11,972 bases of DNA from a virus (taxonomy: Duplodnaviria; Heunggongvirae; Uroviricota; Caudoviricetes), in IMG/VR virus record IMGVR_UViG_2713896773_000004, positions 1 through 11,972 of that record; one strand, written 5' to 3'. A program made the position numbers and the translations under genes. The notes under the pieces were generated by a model, which saw nothing but the letters and a program-made list of their open reading frames with translations, ran no database searches and had not been told where the DNA came from. Of this stretch, positions 1 to 11,461 are shown one piece after another (position 1 is the first letter of the stretch; each line of letters begins with the position of its first letter).

Positions 1-29
1 TTTGAATAACTGAATAAGGTAATAAAACA

Positions 30-494
30 ATGACTCAACATATTGGCGTGAAGCTCATCAATGCTTACCCGATGACCCGTCTGGCATATAACGACTTTCG
101 TGGTTGGGAGTTACCAAGTGACGAAAACGGAAGTGATGAAGGTTATCTCGTCGAGTATCTGGATGGCGGAAAGCCAAACACCGATCGCTTCAACGGGTAT
201 GTGAGCTGGAGTCCGAAAGATGTGTTCGACAAAGCCTACCGACCAGTGGCGGGGCTTAGCTTCGGACTGGCTGTCGAAGCCCTGAAATCAGGCAAGCGTG
301 TCACCCGCGCAGGCTGGAACGGCAAGGGCCTGTGGCTTGAGCTGGTCCAGCAGTCGCCATCTGTGGACCTGCCGTACATTCGTTTAATTTATCCTGTGCC
401 GGGCAATGGTGCTATGCCATACCCAAATGGCGCTCGCGTGCCTTGGGCACCAAGCCAAACCGACGTCTTGGCTGATGACTGGCAAATTCTCTAA
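30..494 (+). CDS. Two-domain phage accessory protein; C-terminal DUF2829-like (Tad2-like) domain, N-terminal uncharacterised domain
   Basis: 154-aa ORF with ATG at 30 downstream of AAGG. C-terminal half has the motif series FGLAVEALKSGKRVTRAGWNGKG ... VPWAPSQTDVLADDWQIL, which I recognise from memory as the DUF2829 pattern (FGEAL.ALK.GK.V.R.GWNGK ... PW..SQ.D.LA.DW). N-terminal half (GYLVEYLDG ... YVSWSPKDVFDKAY) looks like a separate domain. No search was run. Confidence 0.55.
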   Translation: MTQHIGVKLINAYPMTRLAYNDFRGWELPSDENGSDEGYLVEYLDGGKPNTDRFNGYVSWSPKDVFDKAYRPVAGLSFGLAVEALKSGKRVTRAGWNGKGLWLELVQQSPSVDLPYIRLIYPVPGNGAMPYPNGARVPWAPSQTDVLADDWQIL

Positions 495-517: not shown

Positions 518-727
518 ATGCGAGATGACGATTTTCACCATGTGGGCGATGGCCGCGGTAAGCGCCGAGTGTTCGTTAACGGCAACGAGGTCAAGCGCTG
601 CGTATGGGCGGATGTTAAGCGAGGAATAGCATGCTTCTACCCATACCCCATTCGGGTCCATAAGCGAAAGCGCGATGAAGTCTATACCCGCAAACTGCGC
701 GGCGTAATAACCGTCGAATTTATCTAA
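518..727 (+). CDS. Small basic hypothetical phage protein (about 69 aa)
   Basis: ORF in the track as 500..727 (TTG start). I prefer the in-frame ATG at 518, which follows a G-rich Shine-Dalgarno-like run GGGGGGTGG (505-513). Lys/Arg-rich (KRKRDEVYTRKLRG). No family recognised. Followed directly by a terminator. Confidence 0.45.
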   Translation: MRDDDFHHVGDGRGKRRVFVNGNEVKRCVWADVKRGIACFYPYPIRVHKRKRDEVYTRKLRGVITVEFI

Positions 728-728
728 C

Positions 729-753
729 AGGCTGCCTTCGGGTGGCCTTTTTT
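729..753 (+). terminator. Rho-independent terminator (UUCG tetraloop hairpin plus T6)
   Basis: AGGCUGCC-UUCG-GGUGGCCU forms an 8-bp stem with two G-U wobbles, followed by TTTTTT, immediately after the stop at 725-727. Confidence 0.6.
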
Positions 754-834
754 ATGCCTGCCGCTGAGCGGATGCGACGCGGTGACCGGGTCGGATGACC
801 TATTACCAATGGCCGGAAGGCTGGAGCAAAAACA

Positions 835-1587
835 ATGAAACTGAAACTTGATGCTAACGGAAATGTGGTCGTTGAAAACGGTATGCCTGTGTACATCCAT
901 GATGATGGCAAAGAAATCCCGTTCGACGCAGCCGCAGCGATGACCAAAATCACCTCCCTGAATGGTGAAGCTAAAACTCACCGTGAAGCGAAGGAGGCGG
1001 CGGAAGCCAGTCTCGCGAAATTCTCTGGCATCACCGATCCGACCAAGGCGCTCGAAGCCCTGGAGATGATGACCAAAATCGACCAGAAAAAACTGATCGA
1101 CGCTGGCGCTGTTGACCAGGTTAAGGCTGAGATTACCAAGGTATTCCAGCAGCAGCTGGATGAAGCGAACGGCAAGACCAAACAGCTCGAAAGCCAGCTC
1201 TACGACGAGATGATCGGCGGGCGCTTCGGTGGCTCCAAATTCATTTCAGAGAAGATGGCGATCCCGGCTGAGTTCGTGCGTTCCCACTTCGGTCAGAACT
1301 TCAAAATCGAAGACGGCAAAGTCGTGGCGTACGACGGGCAGGGCAACAAGGTGTTCTCTCGCACCAAGCCAGGCGAGTTAGCCAGCTTTGATGAGGCCCT
1401 GGAGTCTCTGGTCGAGTCGCATCCGCAGAAAGATTACATCCTCAAAGCGTCCGGTAACAGCGGCGGCGGTTCTCACCAGTCGCAGCACCAGGCCGGGCAA
1501 AAAACCATGAAACGCGATGCGTTTGATTCCCTGGATAACGCTGGCAAGCAAGCAGCGCTGAAAGACGGCGTCAGCATCGTCGATTAA
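835..1587 (+). CDS. Putative capsid scaffolding protein
   Basis: 250-aa ORF with AGGCTGGAG upstream. Charged, Ala/Lys/Glu-rich, predicted helical/coiled-coil composition, Gly/Ser/Gln-rich linker near the C-terminus. Sits immediately upstream of the major capsid gene with a 17-nt gap, the usual scaffold position. Confidence 0.55.
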   Translation: MKLKLDANGNVVVENGMPVYIHDDGKEIPFDAAAAMTKITSLNGEAKTHREAKEAAEASLAKFSGITDPTKALEALEMMTKIDQKKLIDAGAVDQVKAEITKVFQQQLDEANGKTKQLESQLYDEMIGGRFGGSKFISEKMAIPAEFVRSHFGQNFKIEDGKVVAYDGQGNKVFSRTKPGELASFDEALESLVESHPQKDYILKASGNSGGGSHQSQHQAGQKTMKRDAFDSLDNAGKQAALKDGVSIVD

Positions 1588-1604: not shown

Positions 1605-2744
1605 ATGGCAGGCAATACCCTTACTGGTCTGATCCCGACCATCTATACCGCGCTGTACGTAGTGTCCCGCGAGCAAACTGGTTTTATTCCTGCGGTGGCG
1701 CGTGACGCGAAAGCGGATGCTGCTGCAAAAGACCAGACCGTACGTGCGCCAGTCGCACCTGCAGCCACCACTGAAGATATTGTCCCTGGACCTTCAGCGC
1801 CTAATTCTGGCGACCAGACCATCGGTGGTGTGGATGTCAAAATCACCAAATCCAAAATGGCCCCGGTGAAATGGAATGGTGAAGAGCAATTGGCTCTGGG
1901 CCCGGCTGGTACCTACAACACCATCCTGGCTGACCAGTTCAAGCAGGCTTTCCGTGCGCTGGCGAACGAAGTGGATGCGGATCTCGCTGCGCTGTACCTC
2001 AACTCCTCCCGCGCTGTTGGCGCGCCAAAGAATACCCCGTTCAGCATCAAAGACGATCTGACTGATGCTGCGTTGGCGCGTCAAATCCTGACCGATAACG
2101 GTGCGCCGACTACTGATTTGCGTATGGTGCTGGGTGGCGAAGCGATGGCATCCATCCGTGGTAAACAGGCTGTACTCTTCAAAGCGAACGAAGCGGGAAC
2201 CGACCAACTGCTGCGTGAAGGTGTTATCGGTCGCATCATGGGCTTCAACCTCCACGAATCCTTCAGCATCAAGCGTACCGCGAAAAGCGCTGCTGCTGGC
2301 TATAAGGTCAATGGCGCGAAGAAAGAGGGCGATATCATCATCGCTATCTCTGCTGGCACCGGCGGTATTGCTGCAGGTACTGCGGTGAAGTTCGCCGGTG
2401 ATGACAATCAGTATCTGGTCGTTGCGGCTACGTCTTCCACTATCACTATTAGCGCGCCGGGCCTCCGTCAGGATCTGGCAGACCAGGCTGATGTCACTGT
2501 GTTGAGCGAATTTGTACCGAACATGGCGTTTGACCGCGGGGCATTCCTGCTGGCCAGCCGTACCCCGGCGATGCCTGAAGGTGGCGATACTGCTGATGAC
2601 GTCATGAATGTGACCGACCCGGTATCTGGCATCACCTTCCAGGTGGCGCTGTACCGCCAGTACCGTCAGGTGCGTTATGAAGTGGGCCTGGCATGGGGTG
2701 TGGCTGCTGTGGCGCCACGTCATTCCGCCATCATCATGGGTTAA
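1605..2744 (+). CDS. Major capsid (coat) protein, P22 coat-like by motif resemblance
   Basis: 379-aa ORF with strong RBS AAGGAG about 8 nt upstream. Position after the scaffold gene and before connector genes. Segments GDIIIAISAGTGGIAAGTAVKFAGDDNQYLVV and the C-terminal GLAWGVAAVAPRHSAI resemble motifs I recall from P22 gp5-type coat proteins. Followed by a hairpin terminator/attenuator, typical of highly expressed capsid genes. Confidence 0.65.
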   Translation: MAGNTLTGLIPTIYTALYVVSREQTGFIPAVARDAKADAAAKDQTVRAPVAPAATTEDIVPGPSAPNSGDQTIGGVDVKITKSKMAPVKWNGEEQLALGPAGTYNTILADQFKQAFRALANEVDADLAALYLNSSRAVGAPKNTPFSIKDDLTDAALARQILTDNGAPTTDLRMVLGGEAMASIRGKQAVLFKANEAGTDQLLREGVIGRIMGFNLHESFSIKRTAKSAAAGYKVNGAKKEGDIIIAISAGTGGIAAGTAVKFAGDDNQYLVVAATSSTITISAPGLRQDLADQADVTVLSEFVPNMAFDRGAFLLASRTPAMPEGGDTADDVMNVTDPVSGITFQVALYRQYRQVRYEVGLAWGVAAVAPRHSAIIMG

Positions 2745-2983: not shown

Positions 2984-2985
2984 CT

Positions 2986-3297
2986 GTGAGCGATAAAGAT
3001 ATTGAGCAGGAAATTCAGGCCAAAGGCTTGAACGCGCCGCGCGTTACGCTGGGCGAGTTGAAGGCGAATATTAAGCATGCCGAGATCGTGAAGCACGTAT
3101 CCGTCACCGGGCAGGTGCTTCGCTGGGCGGTCATCACCACTCAAAACGGATTCGCAGTAACAGGGAATCCGTCGTGCTCAGTTTCCTCCGCTAACGACAA
3201 CGCTGAAATTGGCGAGAAAATTGCTATTGAGAACGCCGAAAGCGAGTTGTGGGCGTTGATGGGATATGCGTTAAAGCAGAAGCTTTTCGAAGCCTGA
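2986..3297 (+). CDS. Gp49-like small phage protein (PF13876-like pattern), function unknown
   Basis: 103-aa ORF with GTG start at 2986 preceded by GGAGGAG. Pattern TLGELKANI ... VTGQVLRWAVITTQNGFAVTGNPSCSVSSANDNAEIGEKIAIENAESELWALMGYALK matches my memory of the gp49/gp66-type small phage protein family. Not verified by search. Confidence 0.45.
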   Translation: MSDKDIEQEIQAKGLNAPRVTLGELKANIKHAEIVKHVSVTGQVLRWAVITTQNGFAVTGNPSCSVSSANDNAEIGEKIAIENAESELWALMGYALKQKLFEA

Positions 3298-3310
3298 GAG
3301 GAGCTCTGAG

Positions 3311-3793
3311 ATGATTAATGCCGATCCCCATTCGTCTGACTTCAACAGCTATGCCAGCGTTGGTGATCTGCGCGCGTTCGCTGCGGGGCGCGGATACACC
3401 ATCCCTGCTGAAGATGGCGAATGCAGCCAGATGCTGATGCAGGCAATGGACTTTCTGGAAGGGAAGGCCTGGCGCGGTCAGCGTTCCAGCGCATCACAGC
3501 CTCTATCCTGGCCGCGTTCCGGCGTGCGCTTCGATGGTGTTGACCTGTCGAATGATGCGATTCCACAGCGCCTGATTGATGCTCAATGTCGCCTGGCCAT
3601 CGAATCGCAGGAGATTGACCTCACCCCGTCGGTCGCTGGCGGTGGGGCGGTTACGATGGAGCGCGTCGAGGGTGCGGTAACAGTCCAGTATGAGCCGGGA
3701 ACGAATAAAGCTTCTCCGTCATTCCCATGGTTCTATTCCGCACTGCGCGGGCTTGTAGTGGGCGGCAACCAGGTCCGGGTCGAAAGGGGGTAG
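3311..3793 (+). CDS. Putative head-tail connector / adaptor protein
   Basis: 160-aa ORF with GAGGAG RBS. First of four tightly packed small genes between the capsid and major tail genes, the canonical siphovirus connector/neck block. Assignment is by position and size, not by recognised homology. Confidence 0.4.
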   Translation: MINADPHSSDFNSYASVGDLRAFAAGRGYTIPAEDGECSQMLMQAMDFLEGKAWRGQRSSASQPLSWPRSGVRFDGVDLSNDAIPQRLIDAQCRLAIESQEIDLTPSVAGGGAVTMERVEGAVTVQYEPGTNKASPSFPWFYSALRGLVVGGNQVRVERG

Positions 3794-5235: not shown

Positions 5236-6168
5236 ATGGCATTCGCAATCCCTAACGGCTCGCGTGTTAACGTGGCCAAGGCCTATCAGGCTCCCATCAC
5301 CTTTACCGCTGCCTCTAACGCTACTGAATGCGAACTGACTGTTGCATCTGCCGCTGGCATCCTGGCGGGCGACGTAGTGCAGGTGAGCTCCGGCTGGCTA
5401 AAACTCGATAATATGGTGCTGCGCGTTAAATCCGTAGCCGGTACCAAAATCGTGCTGGATTCGTTCGATACCTCTGACACCACCAAATTCCCGGCAGGCA
5501 CTGGCGCGGGCACGCTGCGTAAAATCGACACGTGGATCACGATGCCGCAGGTGATGACCCTCTCCACAGAGGGTGGTGACCAGCAGACCATCAGCGTGCA
5601 GTTCCTTGAAGACGATAAGGCCCGTACCATCCCGACCTTCAAAAACGCCGTGGTGCAGGTCTACACCTTCGCGCACGATCCGCTGCTGGCAATTTACAAG
5701 CGTCTGAGTGAACTTGACGAATCCAGCGACACCACTGCTGTGTGGTTCCATAACCCGCGCGGCAAAGCGGACCGTTATTACTCTGCCAAAGTGTCTTTCC
5801 AGAAGGTGCCTAAGACCGAAATCAACGCCGTGGAAAGCAACGAAGCGCGCATGAACTTCGAATCGGATATGCAGATTTACCCGATCGCCGATTCATCCGT
5901 TACGCCGCTGGCGTTCCTGACTGATCTGCCATCAACCAAAGCAGTTAGTGTTGGAGATGCGCTCGATTTAGCCGTCGTTATGCAAGGCGGCTCAGCCCCT
6001 TACACCTACGTGTGGAAGAAAGGAAGCTCCGCAATTCCGGGCAAAACCGCCTCGACGTTCAACATTTCGTCTGTCTCATCCGGTGATGCTGGCGTTTATA
6101 CCTGCGAAGTCACTGACGCCGCAGGCAAGACCCTAACGTCGGCGGCATGCACCGTTACTGTCAGCTAA
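5236..6168 (+). CDS. Major tail (tube) protein with C-terminal Ig-like domain
   Basis: 310-aa ORF with RBS CAGGAGAG. Sits between the tail terminator and the G/GT chaperone, as lambda V does. C-terminal roughly 80 aa (AVSVGDALDLAVVMQGGSAPYTYVWKKGSS ... SGDAGVYTCEVTDAAGKTLTSAACTVTVS) has the Y-x-C and W hallmarks of an Ig-like domain of the kind appended to many phage tail tube and capsid proteins. Confidence 0.7.
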   Translation: MAFAIPNGSRVNVAKAYQAPITFTAASNATECELTVASAAGILAGDVVQVSSGWLKLDNMVLRVKSVAGTKIVLDSFDTSDTTKFPAGTGAGTLRKIDTWITMPQVMTLSTEGGDQQTISVQFLEDDKARTIPTFKNAVVQVYTFAHDPLLAIYKRLSELDESSDTTAVWFHNPRGKADRYYSAKVSFQKVPKTEINAVESNEARMNFESDMQIYPIADSSVTPLAFLTDLPSTKAVSVGDALDLAVVMQGGSAPYTYVWKKGSSAIPGKTASTFNISSVSSGDAGVYTCEVTDAAGKTLTSAACTVTVS

Positions 6169-6175
6169 CCAATCA

Positions 6176-6200
6176 GGCCCGGTTCGCCGGGCTTTATTTC
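6176..6200 (+). terminator. Rho-independent terminator after the major tail gene
   Basis: GCCCGG-UUCG-CCGGGC hairpin (6177-6192) followed by TTTATTTC. Confidence 0.6.
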
Positions 6201-6384
6201 GCAATGAGTACCGCTGGCGAATTTTCTGTATTCGCATTACCCATCTTTTCAAACTGCGCCTTCACACGCGCTCTCTAACCAAGAACCTTTCAGAAAGCGT
6301 TCCTGAGAACTGCCGTTAGTGCCGGTGGGCCTCTTGGGGCGGCTTTTCTGTGTGAACAGGTTCGCTTTTTAAAAGGTACACACC

Positions 6385-6915
6385 ATGAATCACCCAACCG
6401 TCTCAGTGAATGGGGTCTCCGTCCGCGTTGATGACGAAGGCCGGTACAGTCTTAACGATCTTCATGCGGCAGCGGTAGCTAACGGAGAGGCTACTGAGTC
6501 ACAAAGGCCCAGCGTCTTCCTGCGTAGCGCGCAGATCAAACGCTTCGTTAAAGCGCTAAAATCCAAAGCACTAAAAAGTGCTTCGGAACAAAATCAACCA
6601 CTTAAGGTTATAAAAGGCGGTGATCAAAGTGGTGCATGGGGCATTGAACTTCTGGCAATCCGCTATGCCGCCTGGATAAAGCCAGAGTTTGAGATTGAAG
6701 TGTACGAAGTATTTAGAACAGTGGTGCGTCTTGGTATCAGTGCCATGTCCCGCCTGAACAAAATCGACCACATCATCAACACTGAAACCAAGGCAATTAG
6801 CCAGTGTGCCAGCCAAATGGCCAAGTGGGGTGTTGGTGGTCGCAAGCAGCTATTACATGCAGCCCGGGATCGCGTCGCCGACGAAGTCCAGATGTATCTG
6901 CCCGGCATTAACTAA
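6385..6915 (+). CDS. KilA-N domain protein (moron)
   Basis: 176-aa ORF with AAAAGG upstream. N-terminus VSVNGVSVRVDDEGRYSLNDLHAAA ... SVFLRSAQIKRFVKAL ... GAWGIELLAIRYAAWIKPEFEIEVYEVF matches the KilA-N pattern I recall (V..G..IRV...GRYSLNDLH.A ... F.R ... W..P.F). C-terminal roughly 70 aa unrecognised. Lies in a 786-bp gap between the major tail gene and chaperone G, with terminators on both sides. Confidence 0.6.
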   Translation: MNHPTVSVNGVSVRVDDEGRYSLNDLHAAAVANGEATESQRPSVFLRSAQIKRFVKALKSKALKSASEQNQPLKVIKGGDQSGAWGIELLAIRYAAWIKPEFEIEVYEVFRTVVRLGISAMSRLNKIDHIINTETKAISQCASQMAKWGVGGRKQLLHAARDRVADEVQMYLPGIN

Positions 6916-6916
6916 T

Positions 6917-10722: not shown

Positions 10723-10753
10723 GAGCTAAACCATGCTAATCAAGGGGATGATA

Positions 10754-11128
10754 ATGAAGGCGCTCAAAATTGGCCTTGCAGGGATTGTTGTTATTTACTT
10801 GCTCATCAATGCCAGTAAATCACAAGAGATAAAAAGCGAAGATATACCTGCGTTTGCTAAAAGTGAGTCAAATGTATGGATAGCTAATACACTGGGCCAG
10901 CCGGGCGCAGACGTCATCAAAAGCTCTACCTACTACCTTAAGCGTGAGATTCCAGAAGAGGATATTGTTTATGGCTATCTTTGTGGAACCATAACAACTG
11001 GCGAAAGATTCTTTACTGAGGTCTCGATCAATAAGCGCAAGCACACGTCTGGCATTTTCAAAAATATGATATTTGATAAACGCAATGCAAAGACGTTTAA
11101 TCAGATCTGGAACACTGAGTGTAAGTAA
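10754..11128 (+). CDS. Hypothetical secreted or membrane-anchored protein with N-terminal signal peptide (cargo island gene A)
   Basis: Track ORF 10733..11128. I prefer ATG 10754 (or 10748), 6 nt after AAGGGG. N-terminus MKALKIGLAGIVVIYLLINA-SKSQ has a basic n-region, hydrophobic core and Ala at the putative cleavage site, with no lipobox Cys. Mature part has two Cys. Local GC is about 40%. No family recognised. Confidence 0.55.
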   Translation: MKALKIGLAGIVVIYLLINASKSQEIKSEDIPAFAKSESNVWIANTLGQPGADVIKSSTYYLKREIPEEDIVYGYLCGTITTGERFFTEVSINKRKHTSGIFKNMIFDKRNAKTFNQIWNTECK

Positions 11129-11203: not shown

Positions 11204-11461
11204 ATGGAAATGACTGTAGGATTCCCTGAAATGGGTTCGCGATTTGAATCTGTAAGCTTCGATCCAGATTTAGAAATTAAAATGATAAAGACTGTCAGAA
11301 CCAAAATTACAGTTTGCAAGCTTGAGCAAATCAATGCGCCTCATGAACTGGTGTTTATCTATCAGGAGGATTTCAATCCAGGCAGCTCTTTTGCCGAAGT
11401 CGAAGCACGCGCCAAAGAATATGCCAGTAAGGCAATTGCCGGATTGAAAACCCCGGCTTAA
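11204..11461 (+). CDS. Hypothetical small acidic protein (cargo island gene B, 85 aa)
   Basis: ORF with AGGAGA RBS 6 nt upstream of ATG 11204. AT-rich codon usage unlike the structural genes. Its stop codon lies in the loop of a hairpin that can terminate the convergent minus-strand gene. No family recognised. Confidence 0.5.
   Translation: MEMTVGFPEMGSRFESVSFDPDLEIKMIKTVRTKITVCKLEQINAPHELVFIYQEDFNPGSSFAEVEARAKEYASKAIAGLKTPA

Follow-up and report, generated by a model that had tools for sequence, protein, structure and literature searches.

The closest described relatives of the protein analysed here are Tad2 sponges and proteins in which Tad2 or another sponge domain is joined to a second domain. 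In phage SPO1 Tad2, 1''-3' gcADPR is contacted by W25, N26, W73, S76, T78 and D79, and the equivalent residues of HgmTad2 are W21, N22, W87, S90, T92 and D93 (Li et al.). Tad2 homologues vary widely in the systems that they inhibit, and several of those tested inhibited none. Published fusions join Tad2 to Acb4 and to Sequestin (Tal et al.), and the Acb4-Tad2 fusion of the Pasteurella phage Pm86 was shown to cancel defence by both type I Thoeris and type I CBASS (Tal et al.). A Tad2 homologue from a prophage of E. coli AIEC_UM149 is marked ‘Experimentally verified: Yes’ in its row of Supplementary Table 12 of Yirmiya et al. (10.1101/2023.05.01.538930). In the crystal of RyR Tad, gp68 of Pectobacterium phage CB1, the N-terminal domain makes a domain-swapped dimer with strand β1 inserted into the partner protomer, and this N-terminal part alone (gp68_N) gave no inhibition of type I Thoeris (Fedorova et al., 10.64898/2026.06.04.730250). 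The same study describes the neighbourhood of the virion RNA polymerase gene in N4-like phages as an anti-defence hotspot, and lists Tad3 among its inhibitors. Tad3 to Tad8 are described as binders of TIR or effector proteins.

The window (the whole stretch of 11,972 nt that was analysed) comes from an Enterobacterales prophage of the lambdoid siphovirus kind and covers its head-to-tail morphogenesis region. Its first 840 bp share 97.5–98.5% identity with prophages in 11 complete E. coli genomes. The gene studied here, ORF 30..494 (+ strand, ATG start, 154 aa; phrog_872, N4 gp49 type), encodes a protein with an N-terminal sponge-associated domain and a C-terminal Tad2 domain, and one of the proteins 99% identical to its product is named from Enterobacter kobei. 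A likely ribosome-binding site, TAAGGT, can be read at 15..20 (+ strand), 9 nt ahead of the ATG. In the best-matching E. coli prophage, the genes for the small and large terminase, the portal (DUF4055) and a Mu F-like minor head protein lead up to the Tad2 gene, which is followed by genes for a DUF6651 scaffold-like protein, a P22-type major capsid protein, a connector and the tail. The window shows the same arrangement around the gene, with the minor head gene ending at position 9 and the scaffold-like gene (835..1587) and major capsid gene (1605..2744) lying on the 3' side.

No sigma-70-like promoter for the Tad2 gene was found in the window or, in the related prophage L001, over 700 bp of upstream sequence, and because no promoter of its own was detected, the gene is probably transcribed together with the late structural genes. 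The candidate description of the gene as a ‘moron’ with its own promoter was rejected on the same search. Base composition was uninformative as to a recent insertion, the GC content of the first 240 bp being only slightly lower (0.45 versus about 0.55). The founding Tad2 paper (10.1101/2023.05.01.538930) argues that sponges should accumulate early, whereas this gene is found in a late structural operon.

A preliminary description, made from the letters of the window, had read the C-terminal half of the ORF as DUF2829/Tad2-like and the product as a candidate anti-defence protein of the Tad2 family, naming a profile search against Pfam DUF2829 and a comparison of an AlphaFold model with Tad2 structures as checks. 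Both checks agree with it. The sponge domain spans aa 76–154 (255..491, + strand). Pfam PF11195 was matched by aa 77–154 over profile positions 2–73 of 73, with 72.4 bits and an E value of 4.6e-20, against a gathering cut-off of 25 bits. A phmmer search of the PDB matched SPO1 Tad2 at E 5.4e-11, as well as MoTad2 (Myroides), SptTad2 and HgmTad2/AcrIIA7. The AlphaFold2 monomer model of the full-length protein (pLDDT 86.6) was aligned by Foldseek to the Tad2 crystal structures (SPO1, Myroides, Spt and Hgm) with a probability of 1.00 and target-normalised TM scores of 0.78–0.83 for the best chains, in agreement with the Tad2 fold of an N-terminal helix and an antiparallel sheet. The six gcADPR-contacting residues of SPO1 Tad2, in the order given above, align with W96, N97, W139, S142, T144 and D145 of the 154-aa protein; among 42 two-domain homologues, W96, N97 and D145 never vary, and conservation of W139, S142 and T144 is 90% or higher. 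On profile, fold and ligand residues, the domain belongs to the Tad2 family, and the view of the product as a candidate anti-defence protein is further supported by its 60% identity to the experimentally verified AIEC_UM149 homologue.

Between its conserved ends, the Tad2 domain contains a hypervariable middle of about aa 102–134 (334..431, + strand), where mean pairwise identity among the 42 two-domain homologues drops to 26%, compared with 68–74% at the Tad2 ends and 71% in the N-terminal domain. In other Tad2 proteins the equivalent insertion sets additional ligands or cyclic-dinucleotide binding (Li et al.); here the segment is short, so that a cyclic-dinucleotide site like that of HgmTad2 is not to be assumed. 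This specificity-shaping middle also differs from that of the verified AIEC_UM149 homologue. The domain is 44–51% identical over the aligned core to the Tad2 domain of the Pm86 fusion, Tad2_71 and SPO1 Tad2, and the best local-alignment score among tested proteins was that of the Pm86 Tad2 domain (36 of 71 residues identical). Reading the ligand spectrum from the closest tested protein was tried and abandoned: Tad2_68, Tad2_70, Tad2_71, Tad2_76, Tad2_82, SPO1 Tad2 and Pm86 all fall at 41–51% identity over the aligned core, none standing out clearly as the nearest. Since the inhibition ranges of Tad2 homologues vary so widely, the ligand spectrum is unreadable from sequence, and the Thoeris types that the protein inhibits cannot be predicted.

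The two-domain architecture is common. The phrog_872 profile matches aa 1–153, its full length, at E 2e-60. Homologues of the protein number 4,932 in a collection of 5.8 billion proteins, the best 120 being mostly 150–170 aa long, and matches in 93 phage records, including Kapi1, Louie, Vibrio phages and N4-like/G7C-like phages, span at least 80% of it. The exact protein sequence occurs in public assemblies, in 2,031 indexed blocks. Identity to the AIEC_UM149 homologue, 60%, extends over the full length (E 1e-68). The supplement of the founding paper (10.1101/2023.05.01.538930) contains at least 102 strings with SWSPK, a motif of the N-terminal domain, and the matches listed all stand in its Tad2 tables. 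By sequence, the 154-aa protein is a member of an N4 gp49-type subfamily, one member of which has been experimentally verified. The premise of the preliminary description that known Tad2 proteins are short and single-domain does not hold, given the 159-aa verified homologue, N4 gp49 and the published fusions with Acb4 and Sequestin. The two-domain architecture is not new, and the gene is an ordinary member of the known Tad2 family. To our knowledge, the extra domain itself is not discussed in these papers.

The N-terminal domain comprises aa 1–73 (30..248, + strand) and is modelled as β-β-α-β-β-α; it belongs to no curated family. The AlphaFold2 model of aa 1–75 reached a pLDDT of 94.7, which indicates a separate, independently folding unit. 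The claim of an extra N-terminal domain of about 75 aa was thereby confirmed in substance, the domain measuring about 73 aa and having free-standing homologues. The same description suggested that the domain may alter or broaden ligand specificity, which is conjecture. Searches with aa 1–75 returned no Pfam match at E ≤ 10, no NCBIfam match at E ≤ 0.1, no meaningful PDB sequence match and no PDB profile match, and NCBIfam likewise has no model that matches this domain, the full-length protein, the small ORF at 518..727 or the Acb4 ORF of the window. Residues conserved in the domain are R17, Y20, R24, W26, E32, D36, E37, Y39, E42, Y43, D45, N50, Y57, W60 and K63, and its net charge is acidic.

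Profile comparison by hhalign related the domain to the N-terminal domain of RyR Tad with a probability of 97.3% and an E value of 2.8e-11 over 70 columns, and a BFVD fold search returned a Yersinia phage RyR-domain protein with a query-normalised TM score of 0.75. Judged from the profile alignment, the two N-terminal domains are homologous. RyR Tad thus resembles the 154-aa protein in having this domain followed by a gcADPR sponge domain; it differs in that the sponge domain is RyR repeat-like rather than Tad2, and in that the CB1 N-terminal domain is divergent, lacking the RGW..P.DE and DGGK.N loops that are near-invariant in the main family. As the CB1 copy is divergent, the negative result obtained with gp68_N may not generalise to the main family. 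The first strand (β1) of our protein was modelled with confidence in the isolated domain but was unformed and of low confidence in the full-length model, a contrast that gives an indirect hint of a domain swap in the 154-aa protein as well.

Other identities considered for the domain were Acb4, Tad3 and DUF1653 (PDB 3BE3). Acb4 (PF13876) was suspected at first because of the family name ‘N4 gp49/Sf6 gene 66’ and the published Acb4-Tad2 fusions. It was rejected on three grounds: neither aa 1–75 nor the free-standing homologues gave a Pfam match at E ≤ 10, compared with PF13876 scores of 101 bits for Pm86 and 119 bits for N4 gp48; hhalign against an alignment of 18 Acb4 sequences gave a probability of 0.2%; and in N4 the PF13876 protein is gp48, the N-terminal domain being carried, together with Tad2, by gp49. 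As for Tad3, no chain of that name was among the fold-search matches.

A census of the N-terminal domain was made with a profile of 30 sequences searched against representatives of 50% identity clusters, yielding 2,701 clusters with E ≤ 1e-3, of which 1,292 reach E ≤ 1e-10. Among the best 144 new representatives, Pfam assigned the partner as Tad2 in 45, Sequestin (PF21825) in 39, Acb4 (PF13876) in 15 and the Acb2/Tad1 hairpin in 2, with WDGH, AP2 and HNH seen once each; custom HMMs run on the representatives added one Tad1 and one RyR partner, and about 30 of the 144 had an unannotated partner. The domain precedes Tad2 (38) or Sequestin (21), and also follows Tad2, Sequestin or Acb4. Triple-domain proteins such as Acb4-Ndom-Sequestin and Ndom-Sequestin-Tad2 (Ndom being the N-terminal domain) were seen too, so that the domain can stand at either end of a protein or in the middle with a sponge domain on each side. 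In the supplementary tables of Tal et al., at least two sequences have the domain ahead of Lockin, and SWSPK occurs at least 94 times in what appears to be the table of Sequestin homologues. Tal et al. searched for fusion partners among Pfam families only, so a domain for which Pfam has no model would have been missed.

The domain is also frequent as a free-standing protein of about 73 aa. One such gene has a class II ribonucleotide reductase gene on one side and glutaredoxin/PhoH genes on the other, and no known sponge gene was called in the 4 kb flanking it in each direction. Another is found directly upstream of a separate RyR-domain gene in the head module of a podovirus, and a third adjoins the gene for the virion RNA polymerase in an N4-like phage of Erwinia, within the hotspot of Fedorova et al.

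The preliminary description had also combined the Tad2 gene with a small basic ORF and a terminator upstream of the scaffold gene into a compact accessory unit. Both elements exist. The ORF (518..727, + strand, 69 aa) matches phrog_3540 at E 3e-31, has a net charge of about +8 as counted from its sequence, and has homologues of 44–54% identity in phages of Vibrio, Klebsiella, Acinetobacter and Pseudomonas. The terminator is an intrinsic-terminator-like hairpin with a UUCG loop and a U6 tail (729..754, + strand), and the HK639 record has a terminator annotated at the homologous spot, marking this element as part of the head-module backbone. The proposed unit, on the other hand, is not borne out by related genomes. 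In the E. coli prophage ET729, whose homology with the window begins at position 504, the small ORF and terminator follow the minor head gene directly, without a Tad2 gene; HK639 keeps the terminator and has neither the Tad2 gene nor the small ORF. Comparison with these two genomes sets the Tad2 gene apart as a cassette of its own, of about 0.5 kb, adjacent to the small ORF.

A second sponge gene lies in the same head module. The ORF at 2986..3297 (+ strand, GTG start, 103 aa) encodes an Acb4 homologue (PF13876, 55.9 bits, E 6e-15). The closest E. coli prophage, L001, lacks the stretch 2985–3318 that contains it, and the gene is present in only one of three prophages that encode an identical Tad2 protein. 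Together with the Tad2 gene 2.5 kb upstream, this independent insertion of an Acb4 (anti-CBASS) gene suggests that the phage is equipped with a two-gene kit against defences based on nucleotide signalling.

We place at roughly 75% the probability that ORF 30..494 encodes an anti-signalling protein of the N4 gp49 type, in which a Tad2 sponge directed against Thoeris is combined with a dimerising or scaffolding N-terminal module, the whole carried as a head-module cassette. In the proposed mechanism, the Tad2 domain would assemble into a homotetramer with pockets at the protomer interfaces, and would sequester ADP-ribose-derived signals made by TIR proteins (3'cADPR/gcADPR). With its signal sequestered, the Thoeris effector would never be activated, and the phage would escape abortive infection. 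The N-terminal domain would act as a domain-swapped dimerising or scaffolding unit, as does its homologue in RyR Tad, joined by a linker of about five residues to helix α1 of the Tad2 tetramer core, and it may have a further activity of its own. The gene itself is an inserted cassette of about 0.5 kb, with the minor head protein gene on one side and the remainder of the head module on the other. That the Tad2 half acts as published for its family is highly probable, given the predicted fold, the ligand residues and the verified relative at 60% identity. For the N-terminal domain, a dimerising or scaffolding role is the most likely one by analogy with RyR Tad. Against the reading as a whole stand the varied inhibition ranges of Tad2 homologues, the middle region unlike that of the verified homologue, and the late setting of a gene whose product should, on the argument of the founding paper, accumulate early. 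A dimerising role alone does not explain the free-standing genes, a conservation above that of the sponge domain, or the conserved polar and aromatic residues.

These same observations favour a second reading, which we regard as possible but hold tentatively: the protein may be a dual inhibitor, its N-terminal domain being an autonomous anti-defence module that serves as a sponge for another signal or binds a defence protein, in a fusion of two specificities like Acb4-Tad2 and Acb4-Sequestin. Fusion to known sponges was the logic behind the discovery of Sequestin (Tal et al.), and the domain is fused to Tad2, Sequestin, Acb4, the Acb2/Tad1 hairpin, RyR and Lockin, irrespective of order, as Acb4-Ndom-Sequestin illustrates. 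It is common alone: one copy stands among phage nucleotide-metabolism genes, where no known sponge gene was called for 4 kb to either side, and another is a separate gene just upstream of a RyR-domain gene. It is also strongly conserved in the two-domain family, its mean identity of 71% being accompanied by many conserved polar and aromatic residues. Its net acidic charge argues against a classical nucleotide pocket. Taken generally, and with the same reserve, the domain would represent an unrecognised autonomous anti-defence family, sponge for another signal or binder of defence proteins, that is fused to at least six unrelated sponge families and common alone, and that was overlooked because neither Pfam nor NCBIfam has a model for it.

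Two further readings concern the protein as a whole, and we consider both improbable. One makes it a virion or assembly protein, whose N-terminal domain binds capsid or scaffold and which serves as a minor head or decoration component rather than primarily as an immune evader. The gene follows that for the Mu F-like minor head protein and precedes those for the scaffold and capsid, a position consistent with this reading, as are the free-standing domain and RyR gene inside the head module of another phage, and a published census had to leave aside sponge domains joined to a decoration fold resembling Dec (PDB 6E3C). However, the closely related head modules of HK639 and ET729 have no Tad2 gene, which is therefore dispensable for assembly, while in N4-like phages the same protein is encoded in the replication-side anti-defence hotspot beside the virion RNA polymerase gene, and other copies lie among nucleotide-metabolism genes. 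The other, an AcrIIA7-like anti-CRISPR role as annotated on some phage homologues, is the least probable of all and is largely refuted. Type II CRISPR-Cas is not normally carried by E. coli and its relatives, which counts against such a role. The DUF2829 family does include AcrIIA7, which was matched at E 8e-08 and 1e-06, and ‘anti-CRISPR protein’, a label that traces to AcrIIA7, is the annotation of homologues in the phages Louie, Huey, Mimir124 and phi1_146050. Nevertheless, Cas9 inhibition by HgmTad2/AcrIIA7 or other Tad2 homologues was not reproduced in vitro or in vivo (Li et al.), and the founding paper (10.1101/2023.05.01.538930) argues that DUF2829 proteins are anti-Thoeris and not anti-CRISPR.

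The gene itself, a further Tad2-type sponge from a very common enterobacterial prophage with an architecture already verified, adds little to what is known. Its setting and its N-terminal domain are of some wider use. The sponge genes of this prophage, Tad2 and Acb4, were inserted independently into the head module of a temperate siphovirus, directly beside the scaffold and capsid genes, and are not parts of a dedicated early anti-defence locus, an arrangement that bears on the timing of sponges relative to structural proteins, which often trigger signalling defences. The N-terminal domain, for which there is no curated family, is very widespread and keeps company with Tad2, Sequestin, Acb4, Tad1, RyR Tad and Lockin. 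Its presence could be used to find new sponge families through fusion or adjacency. If it does form an autonomous anti-defence family, the prophage protein would be a dual inhibitor and the domain a ready flag for further anti-signalling genes.

Compared with the known systems, the protein shares its Tad2 fold (target-normalised TM of about 0.8) and gcADPR-contacting residues with SPO1 Tad2 (gp34.65; PDB 8SME/8SMF/8SMG), which is a single 89-aa domain without an N-terminal module and with a different β2-β3 insertion. With HgmTad2/AcrIIA7 (PDB 8KBI-8KBM) it has in common the DUF2829 fold and the gcADPR site; HgmTad2 binds cyclic dinucleotides through a 41-residue insertion (Li et al.), whereas the corresponding segment here, counted from the alignment, has about 30 residues of other sequence. 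The Acb4-Tad2 fusion of Pm86 (ORF47, 185 aa) likewise places a small domain ahead of Tad2, but that domain is Acb4 (PF13876, 101 bits), to which the N-terminal domain of the 154-aa protein is unrelated. The same combination of domains is found in N4 gp49 (YP_950527, 160 aa; 43% identity over 152 aa, E 9e-45), and N4 also carries an Acb4, gp48, as does the window at 2986..3297. In N4, gp48 and gp49 are adjacent, within the N4-like anti-signalling hotspot and beside the gene for the virion RNA polymerase, whereas the two genes of the window are separate insertions in a siphovirus head module. The AIEC_UM149 homologue (IMG gene 2729517083, 159 aa) differs from the protein in the middle of the Tad2 domain, where it has the SPO1-like ASALGYGFGEYVGEP in place of QQSPSVDLPYIRLIYPVPGNG, and at positions 142 and 144, where Ile and Gly replace Ser and Thr. 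It has the same two domains, with an N-terminal domain that is near-identical as read from the alignment, and both proteins carry the GWNG and C-terminal Tad2 motifs.

In an alignment of the two-domain homologues, which carry both the N-terminal domain and the Tad2 domain, the N-terminal domain and both ends of Tad2 are conserved. The middle of Tad2 (protein residues 102-134, window positions 334..431), by comparison, alternates among several unrelated-looking cassettes with insertions and deletions, which are SPO1-like in some homologues and Pm86-like in others. The occurrence of swapped cassettes between conserved flanks suggests, at the sequence level, that the specificity region of Tad2 may be exchanged as a module. 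Several homologues of the Tad2 protein are labeled "anti-CRISPR protein" in GenBank (PQ850616, Louie; PQ850609, Huey; PQ310662, Mimir124; and PP889499). This label presumably derives from AcrIIA7, a DUF2829-family protein, and is probably misleading, because Cas9 inhibition has been published as not reproducible.

The small basic ORF at 518..727 (plus strand, 69 aa) belongs to phrog_3540, and is 44-54% identical to versions in phages of Vibrio anguillarum, Klebsiella, Acinetobacter and Pseudomonas. In Klebsiella phage ST405-OXA48phi1.3, its homologue lies 3' of the coat gene. The small ORF changes position independently of the Tad2 gene.

A homologue of anti-CBASS 4 (Acb4) is encoded at 2986..3297 (plus strand, 103 aa, GTG start; Pfam PF13876, 55.9 bits), with its start directly abutting the stop of the upstream ORF. 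Sequence comparison revealed that the ~335-bp stretch containing this gene (2985-3318) is absent from both the closest E. coli prophage and HK639, a related phage lacking the Tad2 gene. Among prophages with an identical Tad2 protein, the Acb4 gene was found in only some.

In the tail region, a KilA-N domain protein is encoded at 6385..6915 (plus strand; Pfam PF04383; phrog_129, "transcriptional regulator"), inside an unaligned stretch of the window (6199-6916). The gene fills a variable slot flanked by the major tail protein gene on one side and the tail assembly chaperone gene on the other; this slot holds a "tail tip fiber protein" gene in the closest E. coli prophage and is empty in other relatives. 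The major tail protein itself (5236..6168, plus strand) has a C-terminal Ig-like, Hoc-like decoration domain according to its PHROG matches, with phrog_584 spanning residues 1-216 and phrog_2973/4069 spanning residues ~139-309; Pfam matches detect the Ig domain in its relatives. Two further plus-strand ORFs lie 3' of the tape measure gene: one of 131 aa (10733..11128), with no match in PHROG and Pfam scans at the thresholds used, and one of 85 aa (11204..11461), with no significant match in a Pfam scan alone.

Among 144 representatives of proteins carrying the N-terminal domain (50% identity clusters), this domain is also joined to non-sponge or unannotated partner regions. In P0275 it is joined to a ~157-aa region that, by eye, is a candidate MazG/HisE-like pyrophosphohydrolase. 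P0348, assigned by eye, is apparently the sole WDGH-domain match in the Pfam scan of the 144. P0254 and P0289 contain a fusion to a recurrent "DYAWAWHCNIAMAAFDAG" domain. The partner region lacks annotation in ~30 of the representatives, and such partners could conceal new sponge families.

The N-terminal domain also occurs as a free-standing gene (86 aa) in a metagenomic podovirus contig (L011, 4001-4641), where a separate RyR-domain gene (117 aa) begins 27 nt after it. Like the Tad2 gene of the window, the pair is located within a head module, here 3' of the GP7 capsid and Bbp16 genes. Whereas RyR Tad, the sponge protein of phage CB1 (gp68), joins an N-terminal-domain homologue and an RyR domain in one fused protein, L011 encodes the same pair as two genes, a split version of this arrangement.
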